Source of the DNA: Candidatus Shapirobacteria bacterium
Lineage (GTDB): Bacteria > Patescibacteriota > Microgenomatia > UBA12405 > JAUWLS01
Assembly (NCBI GenBank): GCA_030613565.1
Contig: JAUWLS010000001.1
Coordinates: 27,355 to 91,354, forward strand
Direction: 5' to 3'
DNA length: 64,000 bases
Shown: positions 51,386-54,844 of the stretch, in pieces
Numbering within the stretch: position 1 is the stretch's first letter
Layout of the letters: each line of letters begins with the position of its first letter
The notes under the pieces: model-generated
Database searches by the model: none
The model's input: only the letters and a program-made list of their open reading frames with translations
Told to the model about the DNA's origin: nothing
Position numbers and translations under genes: made by a program

Positions 51386-51551
51386 TCTCTTGATTTCTCT
51401 GCTAATACTACTGTGGTTTCTGTCTAATCTTTTGGCAATTTCTCTGAAACTTAAACCTTTGGATCGCCAAACAGCTATTAAATCCCTTTCTTATGGTGTT
51501 ATCTTATTTCTTTTTTTCATCCTCACATTTTACTGCAAGGTGGTGCGATTC
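51386..51551 (-). repeat. 166-bp inverted copy (165/166 identical) of the 5' end of the IS30-family element at 54082..54247
   Basis: Direct comparison shows it is the reverse complement of 54082-54247. It covers the IS end plus the first roughly 35 codons of the transposase HTH. Confidence 0.9.
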
Positions 51552-51607
51552 GGTTTAGAACTTACAAAAATCTTAAATTTAGTTGAGTAAGTTATAATAA
51601 TCTTGTT

Positions 51608-52267
51608 GTGATGAATAACCTAAACAGCCTTGATATAAAAAAACTTCATCTGAAAGCAGTTCGTGGTAAAAAGCACCCTGATAAATTTTTAGATTTAGTT
51701 TGGACTCACAGCTTAATTGTTAAAAAGATTTGCCTGAACATTGTTGATAACTTAGACAAAAAGACTCGTTCGGGCATTAACAGAGAATTACTAGAAAAAG
51801 GAGCCCTGATTCACGACATTGGTGTTTATTTTTGTTTCGACGAAGATTTTAACCCAGACCAAGAAGCACCTAAGTATTTTTACCATGGGTGGCAGGGAGA
51901 AAAGTTTTTAAAATCATGCGGCATAGATGACAAAAAACTTCTCAGATTTACAACCGTGCATCCCGGAGTTGGAATAACAAAAAAAGATATTGAAAGAGAA
52001 AGACTAGACTTACCAAAAAAAGATTTTACCCCCACATCCATAGAAGAAGAGATTTTAACTTATGCTGACAAATTTCACACAAAATCTCCATCCTTTGTTA
52101 GTTTTAACGAAGCAAAAGGAAAACTTGAAAAAATTAATAAAAACAAAGGTATAAAAATGGACTTATATCGAAAAAAGTTTGGTTTACCAAATCTTCATGA
52201 GTTAAAAAAAGAATACAAAAACTGGCATGAATCTTTTAAAAATTTTTGGAAAGAAATCGAGGGTTAA
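51608..52267 (+). CDS. HD-domain metal-dependent phosphohydrolase
   Basis: H..LIHDIG..H..YADKF HD-motif spacing. Confidence 0.65.
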   Translation: MMNNLNSLDIKKLHLKAVRGKKHPDKFLDLVWTHSLIVKKICLNIVDNLDKKTRSGINRELLEKGALIHDIGVYFCFDEDFNPDQEAPKYFYHGWQGEKFLKSCGIDDKKLLRFTTVHPGVGITKKDIERERLDLPKKDFTPTSIEEEILTYADKFHTKSPSFVSFNEAKGKLEKINKNKGIKMDLYRKKFGLPNLHELKKEYKNWHESFKNFWKEIEG

Positions 52268-52268
52268 C

Positions 52269-52442
52269 ATGGTCACCTTAGGATTAAAATCCTATGGACA
52301 CGATACTAGTGCTGCCATTGTTGTTGATGGAAAAATCATTGCTGCCACCTCCGAAGAAAGATTTAACAGAGAAAAACACAGTAGAAAATTTCCTGTTGTA
52401 TATGCTCGACCAAGTGCGATTTGTCGAGTATATACAACTTAA
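52269..52442 (+). pseudogene. N-terminal fragment (about 57 aa) of a NodU/CmcH-type carbamoyltransferase, truncated at the GC-rich tract
   Basis: MVTLGLKSYGHDTSAAIVVDGKIIAATSEERFNREKHSRKFP matches the carbamoyltransferase N-terminus, then diverges and stops. Confidence 0.6.
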
Positions 52443-53215
52443 CTCGAACTTATTTTATCAAAAATGGAGGTGTAAAACCCGAAGTTGGCCAATCGCGATA
52501 ACTCGCCATGATTAGTTCCGATATGGCGGTTGGAGTTGACCGCCTGCCTTGACCCTGACTCGGACGACGATCGAGAATGATGGTTTTGAATTGTGGTTTT
52601 TTGAAACGAAAGTTTTTAATCTTTTTTCTTGGTATTTTTGTGTGATTATTCTGTTTTTGGGTAATTAAGCTTTGGTTAAGCATTTGATGTCTTTCACCGT
52701 TTCGCGGTGAAGAAAACCAAGATATTGCATTACTCGCCCCTCAGGGGCACATATCACTTTCAAAACTCCCACCTCCTTACTCCCCCGAACTTTTACTCGT
52801 GCGCTTAGGACCCACTCGGTTTGGCTTCGCCTCCTCCGCTTTCGCAGACTCGTCTCAGACGGTCCAACCCTCGCTCCAATTACCTGACTCCAATCATCTC
52901 TACAGTTTCTCCTTGGCTCTGTGTAGGTACCCTTACTTGCCCCCACGCCTGCCATTGATAGTTCAAAACACACCTTGCCAGCCCCAACCACCCTACTGTT
53001 TTTCAGGACACTCAGTCCCACACCTTGCCACCCCAAACTCCTCGTCACGGGACTTCATTATTTATGCGGCCGCCGCCGTGAGCCAATCGCCCTATCCACA
53101 AAACCAACCCCTCTTTTCCTTTTCAGGGCGTCGGCGGCCTTATTTACCGGCCTTTCATGCCGGCGCCGGGGGCTCGGTTTGCGCCTTACTCTATCACTCA
53201 CACTAGATTAGTGAT
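52443..53215. other. GC-rich (about 55%) non-coding tract of roughly 780 bp: candidate large structured RNA or a foreign DNA fragment
   Basis: Abrupt composition shift. Only short ORFs overlapping on both strands. Internal near-repeats CACACCTTGCCA(G)CCCCAA. No universal rRNA motifs. Confidence 0.3.
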
Positions 53216-53242
53216 CTCTATGAAATTTGATACAAATAACAC

Positions 53243-53479
53243 ATGGCTAGAGAAAAGATTGCAAGCACTCACAAAGTAACCTGTAGAGGAGTTGTCACAA
53301 GAATAATTGATGGAAGAAAACAGGTTGTTTCTGCCCAAGACATACCTGTAGACGCCATAATTACAACTAAAGACAATGGTGATAGAAGAGTTACTTGTGT
53401 TCGTCGCGAGGCTACTATGTGTACTAGCTCCGGTGGTGGTGAAACATTTGCCGAGTGTGTCTATCAACATATCGCCTAA
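53243..53479 (+). CDS. Hypothetical Cys-rich small protein
   Basis: ORF with Cys spacing suggestive of metal binding; GC-elevated. Confidence 0.3.
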   Translation: MAREKIASTHKVTCRGVVTRIIDGRKQVVSAQDIPVDAIITTKDNGDRRVTCVRREATMCTSSGGGETFAECVYQHIA

Positions 53480-53586
53480 ACTAAAGTTTTAAATCAACCC
53501 ATCACGCTACCCATCTTTTTTTGTCTTTCACGGCATAACTAAACTCAACCTGGTAAAATTCAACATATTATAAAAAACAAACAAAA

Positions 53587-54039
53587 ATGTTAGATAAAAA
53601 AATTAAACCAAGAGTTCGTTTAATTGTCATTAAAGATAACAAGATTCTTCTATCTTATGTAAAAAGCGAAGATTTTTATTTCTATATTGGAGGAAAAATG
53701 GAGTGGGGAGAAACCATTAAACAAGCCTGTCAACGAGAAATGAAAGAAGAGGCCAATGCCAATTTTGACTTTAAAAAAATCATCTACATCAGAGACTATA
53801 TCAAGCCGGATATGGACGAACACAGTATTGAACTCTATATCTTAGGAGATATTGACAAATTTAAAGAAGTCGAAGGGTTAAGAGATGAAGAGTTTGATGG
53901 TGATCATTGGCAAACTTGGGTTGATCTGGATAAATTGCAAAATATTGATGTACGACCAAAAGAACTTGTTAAACAAATTATTAAAGATCACAAAAAAGGA
54001 TTTAAAACTGGAGCTATATATCTCGGAGAGATTGACTAA
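53587..54039 (+). CDS. NUDIX hydrolase
   Basis: NUDIX box GGKMEWGETIKQACQREMKEEANA. Confidence 0.8.
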   Translation: MLDKKIKPRVRLIVIKDNKILLSYVKSEDFYFYIGGKMEWGETIKQACQREMKEEANANFDFKKIIYIRDYIKPDMDEHSIELYILGDIDKFKEVEGLRDEEFDGDHWQTWVDLDKLQNIDVRPKELVKQIIKDHKKGFKTGAIYLGEID

Positions 54040-54081
54040 CAGAAATGATAGAACGAGCACCCATACGCGAAGCGAAAGAAA

Positions 54082-54844
54082 GAATCGCACCACCTTGCAG
54101 TAAAATGTGAGGATGAAAAAAAGAAATAAGATAACACCATAAGAAAGGGATTTAATAGCTGTTTGGCGATCCAAAGGTTTAAGTTTCAGAGAAATTGTCA
54201 AAAGATTAGACAGAAACCACAGTAGTATTAGCAGAGAAATCAAGAGAAACAGTTTCAAGGGAAAGCATTATGTTTCTATTCATGCTCAAGCCAAATACAG
54301 AAAACAAAAATCAAAAGCTGGTGAAAGACAGTTTCTAAAAAGTCCCGACATCTATGTCTATGTTTTAGATAAGCTGAGGTTGGGTTGGTCTCCAGAGCAA
54401 ATATCAGGCCGTTTGAAACTTAAGAAAGGTAAGAGTGTTATCTGTCCAGAAACAATCTACTCTTTTATCTACAAAAAAACAAAGACAAGAAGTTATGGGA
54501 GTACCTACCAAGAAAGCAAAAGAAAAGAGAGAGCAGGTTCTCTTCAGCTTCCCATTTATTATCTTTTGATTACTAACTGTCAAAAGAGAAAAATCGAAAA
54601 AATGAGTTACTGGTATCTTGATCAAAACAAGGGTTTAAAAGATCAATCCCTTCCCGACCTTGCCGAAGCTCGTCAAAAAATTATTTCCATTGCTAAAAAA
54701 ATTAAAACTGCTCGATTAGAGAACAATCTTTCTTGTCCTTGGGGCGGGTGTTCTACCTGCAAGTCATTTGAAGCCATTTTAAAAGGAGAGATGAGATATG
54801 CTGGTTTGGGCAAGTACAAAAGCGAGGTTTACGTTCAAAAATAA
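54082..54844 (+). mobile_element. Decayed IS30-family insertion sequence. The transposase pseudogene (open from 54143) has the N-terminal HTH motifs but no start codon and no DDE domain
   Basis: Translation gives ..LSFREIVKRLDRNHSSISREIKRN..LGWSPEQISGRLK..ETIYSFIY, the hallmark IS30 HTH/WSPEQI motifs. The ORF ends after about 234 codons. Confidence 0.7.

Follow-up and report, generated by a model that had tools for sequence, protein, structure and literature searches.

Two inverted remnants of an insertion sequence (IS) of the IS30 family enclose a short gene cluster in the 64,000-nt window of contig JAUWLS010000001.1 analysed here, from a Candidatus Shapirobacteria bacterium. Between the remnants lie an HD-domain hydrolase gene, a truncated carbamoyltransferase gene, a GC-rich non-coding tract, a Cys-rich open reading frame (ORF) and a NUDIX hydrolase gene, an inventory already drawn up in a first-pass annotation and confirmed here by Pfam matches, GC content and conserved Cys residues. 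A tRNA-Pro gene lies beyond the right remnant, where the same annotation had placed it. The window (38.7% GC) is chromosomal and carries rpoB/rpoC-sized ORFs and a row of ribosomal-protein-like genes. Each arm of the inverted repeat is 166 nt long and the spacer between the arms is 2,530 nt. The sequence at 51386-51551 is the reverse complement of 54082-54247 at 165/166 bases, in agreement with the earlier description; the sole mismatch is T at 54198 versus 51435, and a match of this length cannot have arisen by chance. Counting further copies by BLASTN had been proposed, and a search of 51000-55300 against the whole window returned no third copy of the repeat; the 28-nt IS end also occurs once in the window. 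Two calls of the ORF track, 51279..51590 (+) and 53878..54258 (-), have a peptide in common, as had been pointed out, and are spurious, being read through the arms on the strand opposite to the IS30 frame.

The junctions of both arms are present in the reads. In an independent assembly (Logan unitigs of SRR12623517), four unitigs match the window at 100% identity, spanning 49492-51415, 51522-52865, 52842-54111 and 54218-57800, and each breaks exactly 30 nt within an arm. All four arm junctions therefore exist in the reads, and there are two repeat copies with four distinct flanks. A check for mis-assembly had been called for in the first-pass annotation; the independent assembly settles it for the four junctions but does not fix the orientation of the interior, since the arm-junction k-mers are the same for either orientation and the unitigs fit both. 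Inversion of the interior by recombination between the arms, also raised earlier, is plausible: the length of the arms (166 bp), their identity (99%) and a RecA-like ORF in the window (57313-58395) would still permit RecA-dependent flipping. Separately, Logan contigs L002 and L001 split inside the GC-rich tract with an overlap of only 24 nt (52842-52865). No repeat accounts for this break, which could reflect a drop in coverage or population variation.

Elements of the IS30 family, as catalogued in ISfinder, carry a single DDE transposase with an N-terminal helix-turn-helix (HTH) domain and are bounded by terminal inverted repeats of 20-30 bp, next to which a target duplication of 2-3 bp is expected. 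Judged from sequence matches, both arms represent the 5' portion of a transposase pseudogene of the IS30 family. The frame of the right copy opens with an ATG at 54104 and reads MKKRNKITP*ERDLIAVWRSKGLSFREIVKRLDRNHSSISREIKRN... (the asterisk denotes a stop), and the TAA at codon 10 is common to both arms. Pfam HTH_38 is matched by the right (E = 1.1e-13) and left (E = 8.9e-16) copies, and the NCBIfam IS30 transposase model NF033563 is matched at positions 1-102 of 267 (E = 1.1e-17; 64.7 bits versus a cut-off of 80). The relatives found in databases are typical IS30 transposases, most of them truncated where a contig ends, and continue ...LWEYLPRKQKKRRK..GR...RIPDRVSIH.RP....FGHWEGD. The HTH_38 and NF033563 matches and the stop at codon 10 bear out the original proposal that both arms come from a decayed member of the IS30 family, specifically from its 5' end. 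No rve match, and hence no complete DDE domain, was detected, the coding sequence stopping at FGHWE (~51275), and no right-end terminal repeat was found in the window. Neither fragment can transpose, and both copies are dead, given the common nonsense codon, the lack of a DDE domain and the lack of outer ends. A scan of public genome contigs with the IS30 peptide gave no match.

The two copies hold different parts of the element, here divided into a terminal repeat and segments A (codons 1-48), B (codons 49-~147) and C (codons ~148-185). The left-end terminal repeat lies at 51538-51565, and equivalents are kept at the IS30 left ends of two other contigs: L004, the 7-kb contig Ga0366840_1020224 of JGI 3300033145 that is the sole comparator locus for the shared module described below, and L009. 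Its outer 14 nt, GTAAGTTCTAAACC, are retained in three independent elements (the left copy of the window, L004 and L009), and the right arm lacks them. The left copy thus holds the true IS terminus, because GTAAGTTCTAAACC is present there and the right arm begins 14 nt inward. This reverses the first-pass assignment, in which the right copy was the true 5' end and the left copy an orphan fragment; the latter has a full terminal repeat (outer part 51552-51565) and continues into segment C. Nor does the HTH-coding region reach 54844, as had been supposed: in the right copy IS30 homology ends at ~54523, at ...LWEYLPRKQKKR, beyond a frameshift near 54480. The sequence after segment B has no significant similarity to IS30 parts, and at 54602-54844 it matches a PD-(D/E)XK C-terminal fragment at E = 0.0017, which is under the Pfam cut-off.

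Segment C, attached to the left arm, translates as RRRKKYGRKVQRIRIPNRVSIHTRHKAIERRK*FGHWES with one in-frame TAG and halts at the first catalytic-Asp motif. It has 81.7% nucleotide identity to positions 4803-4928 of L004, where the IS30 reads RRRKKYGRKTQKIRIPNRVSIHLRHKTIEKRKEFGHWEGD. In a three-way DNA alignment, the L004 element aligns with the right copy through ...CCAAGAAAGCAAAAGA (54523); it also aligns with the left arm and then, gaplessly in L004, from AGAAGGAGAAAGAAGTATGG onwards (window 51385 to ~51275). In the protein alignment the right product ends PRKQKKR and the left product resumes in the next column at RRRKKYGRK, which directly succeeds PRKQKKR in L004 and in other IS30 transposases. 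On these alignments, segments B and C abut to the residue. An 11/13-nt microhomology links AGAAATCAAGAGA, at the 3' end of A and the A|C joint, with AGAAAGCAAAAGA, at the 3' end of B (54511-54523). Taken together, the alignments show one IS30 sequence divided between two places, the left holding the full repeat, A and C and the right holding, in inverted orientation, the truncated repeat, A and B; the breakpoints are reciprocal and located at the microhomology. A 12-nt match outside the arms, GTTTCTATTCAT (54272; 51321 in reverse complement), was considered as colinear homology and rejected, as it corresponds to the VSIH motif, which occurs twice per IS30 transposase. Unequal exchange of two full copies was likewise rejected: it predicts that segment B restarts after B, and no such restart or significant similarity is seen.

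Table 1 Features in and around the inverted IS30 remnants (window coordinates)
Feature	Position	Strand	Evidence or remark
IS30 segment C, ~codons 148-185	51275..51385	-	Translation; L004 alignment
Left arm: inner part of terminal repeat and codons 1-48 (HTH_38)	51386..51551	-	TAA at codon 10
Outer 14 nt of IS30 terminal inverted repeat, GTAAGTTCTAAACC	51552..51565	-	Left copy only; single occurrence in window
HD-domain hydrolase gene	51608..52267	+	Pfam HD, E 1.1e-7; TIGR00295-like
Carbamoyltransferase N-terminal fragment, 57 aa	52269..52442	+	Pfam Carbam_trans_N 3-42 of 346, E 5.5e-7
Palindrome, 44 nt	52395..52438		Arms 52395-52410 / 52423-52438, 15/16 paired, 12-nt loop
Module shared with L004: non-coding tract, 78-aa ORF, NUDIX	52411..54082	+	BLASTN/MAFFT
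Non-coding tract	52440..53240		T/G-rich to 52733, then GC-rich, C-rich on plus strand
Constrained core of tract	52581..52990		94-95% identical to L004
Orphan 78-aa ORF, four conserved Cys	53243..53479	+	dN/dS 0.28
NUDIX hydrolase gene	53587..54039	+	Pfam NUDIX, E 1e-10; dN/dS 0.08
Right arm: same IS30 5' segment from nt 15 of terminal repeat	54082..54247	+	Repeat and IS30 alignments
IS30 segment B, codons 49 to ~147	54248..54523	+	4-nt deletion, frameshift near 54480
Non-IS30 sequence, then weak PD-(D/E)XK nuclease C-terminal fragment	54524..54844	+	Fragment E 0.0017
tRNA-Pro(GGG)	55193..55267	-	96% identical to module-adjacent tRNA-Pro of L004

Because C continues B without a missing or repeated residue, at an 11/13-nt microhomology, we read the arms as the remains of a single IS30, already a pseudogene, that was split by a rearrangement, probably an inversion, and put the probability of this at about two in three. 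The likeliest mechanism would be illegitimate recombination between the two microhomology sites, sitting in inverted IS30 fragments. Such an exchange would invert the DNA between the sites and leave A at both ends as the 166-bp inverted repeat. The stop at codon 10 would then be older than the duplication of A, or would have spread by gene conversion. Several points weigh against this account. A single inversion by itself neither makes a second A nor removes the outer 14 nt on the right, so at least one more event is needed, for example staggered breaks or a copy that had been truncated earlier. The NUDIX-adjacent IS30 of L004 has the opposite orientation, no simple rearrangement path was found between the gene orders of L004 and the window, and L004 is the only comparator locus. 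The purine-rich B|C site may be prone to breakage, in which case the argument from coincidence would count for less, and the unitigs do not fix the assembled orientation of the interior.

The same arms could have arisen from two independent, old IS30 insertions that decayed separately, with gene conversion keeping 166 bp at 99% identity and without any inversion. Loss of B on the left would then be a deletion between 11/13-nt direct repeats in one copy, a simple and common event, and the stretch of high identity is exactly what both copies still have in common. However, truncation on the right must fall within a few nucleotides of the left deletion endpoint, a coincidence of ~1% in an element of ~1 kb unless the site is fragile, and the missing outer repeat on the right is left unexplained; we regard this history as unlikely. 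A question of mobility was also posed by the first-pass annotation, which had left the choice between a degraded composite mobile element and an IS-mediated rearrangement scar. The scar stands, whereas composite-transposon cargo does not fit dead IS copies around an interior that is not a unit. Had two inverted IS30 copies mobilized a 2.5-kb cargo and then decayed, both 5' ends would point inward and the transposase genes outward, as they do, and an IS30 sequence adjoins the NUDIX gene not only here but also in L004 and in contigs L009 and L010. Yet the terminal repeat of the right arm has lost its outer 14 nt, so that this edge is no insertion junction, the outer IS ends and the DDE domain do not survive, and the codon-10 stop is in both copies. 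Mobilization of this kind needs a usable terminal repeat from each of two IS copies and a source of transposase; here the repeat of the right arm is cut short, neither copy has the catalytic domain, and there is no other IS copy in the 64 kb. In addition, what L004 shares is limited to 52411-54082; it lacks the HD gene and the carbamoyltransferase fragment and has a single IS30 where the window has two, and NUDIX orthologues elsewhere stand in unrelated contexts, which together make a composite transposon improbable.

An assembly artefact, in which a single IS30 fragment was collapsed or mis-joined or the interior was wrongly oriented, is suggested by a repeat of 166 bp, which exceeds usual k-mers, by the breaks of the Logan unitigs at every arm and by k-mer junctions that are the same for both interior orientations. 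The four distinct arm-flank junctions are nevertheless found at 100% identity in an independent assembly, the arms differ at one base, and each of the four flanks is different, so that two copies must exist and only the orientation is open; we give an artefact very little probability.

Comparison with L004 divides the interior into two parts. The order in L004 is RecA (-), tRNA-Pro(GGG), a long non-coding stretch, an 88-aa ORF, NUDIX, IS30 (-) and Ddl, where the IS30 is on the minus strand, encodes 279 aa with HTH_38 and a weak rve match, and is flanked on both sides by AAAGAAAG, which could contain a target-site duplication. By BLASTN and MAFFT, window 52411-54082 matches L004 2352-4449 at 77-95% nucleotide identity, and this homology ends at 54082, where the right arm begins. 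The right edge of the module is IS30 in both the window and L004, whereas the left neighbours differ: in L004 the module begins 1-4 nt past the 3' end of tRNA-Pro, and in the window it is inverted relative to L004 and lies 1.1 kb from the tRNA, with other genes between. The HD gene and the carbamoyltransferase fragment have no counterpart in L004. The whole bracketed segment was not found to recur as one unit; 52411-54082 alone recurs, in L004, with a single IS30. The interior is thus a mosaic, in which the HD gene and the truncated carbamoyltransferase gene are local and 52411-54082 is a separate module.

The module appears much younger than the divergence of the two genomes that carry it. 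Between the window and L004, synonymous divergence (pS) is 0.30 for NUDIX and 0.36 for the 78-aa ORF, compared with 0.74 for both RecA and Ddl, which are saturated; the RecA-like ORF of the window has 89% amino acid identity to the RecA called in L004. The ratio of non-synonymous to synonymous divergence (dN/dS) is 0.08 for NUDIX and 0.28 for the 78-aa ORF. The low pS of the module relative to RecA and Ddl therefore suggests either that the module, with its IS30, passed between lineages that had separated long before or that L004 is chimeric at the tRNA or the IS. The IS30 pieces of the window and L004 are 60-82% identical, about the neutral decay expected over the age of the module. On the account preferred here, the module travels or persists with IS30 at its right edge and is far younger than the divergence of its host from that of L004. 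Orthologues of the NUDIX gene in five other contigs stand in unrelated contexts, and the contigs that carry NUDIX orthologues (L006-L012) hold neither the non-coding tract nor the 78-aa ORF. We note that in L009 (8778-8918) and L010, which represent a third lineage (NUDIX at 70% nucleotide identity), the left end of an IS30, with its terminal repeat complete, lies ~300 nt downstream of NUDIX, where the contig ends; NUDIX and IS30 are adjacent in 3/5 lineages examined.

The tRNA-Pro gene had been proposed to mark a classical integration hotspot. No recombinase or integrase was found among the ORFs scanned between 50122 and 57207, and no second copy of the tRNA-Pro 3' end was detected at up to 3 mismatches. 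Without an integrase or a tRNA 3'-end repeat, the classical tRNA-integration reading is not supported for the window; what survives of the proposal is that the module directly abuts tRNA-Pro in L004, and the link to the tRNA is real only in that respect. The position of the tRNA also differs between the two loci, being between Ddl and a 96-aa ORF in the window and between RecA and the module in L004 (2281-2355), where no tRNA lies between Ddl and the homologue of the 96-aa ORF. From these gene orders, either the tRNA gene or Ddl has moved between the window genome and L004.

The left edge of the module is marked by a palindrome at its joint with the carbamoyltransferase fragment, whose homology stops near residue 43 (~52398). 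The second arm and the loop of the palindrome belong to the module. In L004 the loop is inverted and the second arm kept, and the 3' end of tRNA-Pro replaces the first arm. As a speculation, fold-back copying of a broken end would yield such a palindrome. The module left loop (AAATCGCA) resembles the core of the IS30 repeat (AATCGCAC) over 7-8 nt only, which was taken as chance.

The non-coding tract is most conserved in its central portion. Its GC-rich part has 52-57% GC versus 38.7% for the window. Identity to L004 is 77% at 52423-52580, 94.7% at 52581-52733, 94.1% at 52734-52990 and 80% at 52991-53220. The core has 23 substitutions in 408 aligned positions and is 5-6x less diverged than the synonymous sites of its neighbours. 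It is therefore under constraint, because a divergence of 5-6% is far below the pS of 0.30-0.36 in the adjacent genes. Indels relative to L004 are 1 nt each, and because they are single nucleotides there is no conserved reading frame in the alignment of the tract between the window and L004. The L004 tract is longer (~1.2 kb), with an extra 415 nt (2678-3092) at the point matching 52733|52734. In the extra segment near-perfect GC-rich hairpins follow one another (fold z = -4.8) and a GCCCC-N3-GGGGC hairpin stands at each end, a layout that suggests that the segment was deleted in the window lineage.

Structural signals in the tract come from two sequences. The stems around a variable loop are kept between the window and L004, with compensatory changes. 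RNAalifold predicts 125 pairs for the minus strand (4 compensatory changes) and 95 for the plus strand (1 compensatory change). In a less biased test, in which L004 substitutions were scored on the window fold, 30 changed pairs are kept and 17 broken on the plus strand, and 24 are kept and 38 broken on the minus strand. The strand signals conflict, in that the window-fold test favours plus whereas G-richness and RNAalifold favour minus, a conflict that two sequences cannot settle. Folded whole, the tract has an unremarkable energy on both strands (z about -1.1). In Rfam 15, neither the window tract nor the longer L004 version has a match, whether the threshold is gathering or permissive; only the tRNA passes the gathering threshold, all others being at E >= 1.4, including a skipping-rope match (E = 1.4) that was rejected as weak. 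BLASTN of the tract against plasmids and phages returned nothing, as did a tract 22-mer in public genome contigs and scans of viral contigs; a metagenome-contig match to a 20-mer (L005) was rejected as chance. The collections scanned thus gave no homologue of the tract beyond that of L004. Tentatively, and with doubt prevailing, the tract may be an undescribed functional element, most likely a large structured RNA and otherwise a cis-acting DNA site, carried on a mobile module with an orphan protein and NUDIX. As part of the same tentative reading, the module may move between distantly related Patescibacteria-like genomes, beside tRNA-Pro and IS30. The plus strand at 52770-52779 also holds CACCTCCTTA, the anti-Shine-Dalgarno tail of 16S rRNA, which occurs once in the window; L004 has CACCTCCCTA, and the resemblance is probably chance in a C-rich stretch.

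The 78-aa ORF beside the tract is probably coding, with a dN/dS of 0.28. Its only homologue among 5.8 billion proteins is that of L004, and searches of 5.8 + 1.8 billion proteins leave two members in total. The L004 version is 10 residues longer, a 7-nt indel placing an upstream ATG in frame. No match was found in Pfam, NCBIfam or PDB, and a 1004-aa remote homologue was rejected as an artefact, being a translated tandem repeat.

Two further genes lie outside the arms. A 211-aa ORF (50647-51282) without a family match borrows its stop codon and final residues from the antisense of the IS30 FGHWE segment, so its C-terminus may have been remodelled by the rearrangement. On the other side, 36-nt direct repeats (91.7% identical; 56363-56398 and 57290-57325) bracket a DUF3800 gene (56431-57207). 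In L004 there is a single copy of the 36-nt repeat and no DUF3800 gene between RecA and Ddl, and the DUF3800 gene therefore looks like an inserted cassette.

Set against known systems, the locus shares features with four and differs from each. The HTH_38 domain, the match to NF033563 1-102, the ...RIPxRVSIHxRP...FGHWEGD stretch and a terminal repeat of ~28-30 bp in three related elements place it with the IS30 family. Unlike a typical member, it is a wreck, with a nonsense codon, a frameshift, an internal stop, no catalytic domain past the first Asp motif and no right end, and its coding sequence is divided between two inverted fragments separated by 2.5 kb. IS-associated chromosomal inversions arise by recombination between inverted IS copies, and here too inverted IS-derived repeats, long enough for RecA-dependent flipping, flank a chromosome segment; however, the breakpoints lie inside the IS at a short microhomology, so that the two sides retain different parts of the gene and are not equivalent full copies. 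Transposons of the Tn10/Tn5 type likewise have inverted IS-derived arms around unrelated genes, but the window has neither functional ends nor a transposase, and its interior is not inherited as a unit. With tRNA-linked genomic islands the locus has in common a module that, in L004, lies 1-4 nt from tRNA-Pro and whose synonymous divergence is far under that of the flanking core genes; it differs in having no integrase and no tRNA 3'-end direct repeat, and in the window the module is 1.1 kb away and inverted. The locus is thus a scar of IS30 rearrangement that belongs to a known kind, and only the constrained non-coding element may be novel.

As a scar of IS30 it is ordinary, and its value is as a clean worked example that inverted IS fragments can be complementary halves rather than two insertions. 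When annotated, such repeats should be labelled as the breakpoint of a rearrangement instead of a cargo-carrying transposon. Short-read assemblies of this genome also break at the locus, leaving 2.5 kb of uncertain orientation. The module matters on two counts: its non-coding element is constrained, is known in only two copies and is accompanied by an orphan protein and a NUDIX gene, and the module shows signs of having passed recently between lineages in whose core genes synonymous sites are saturated. To our knowledge, few large non-coding RNAs have been described in the group concerned, which the names of the nearest homologues suggest to be Patescibacteria/candidate phyla radiation (CPR)-like; if the tract is indeed an RNA, it would add a candidate to them.

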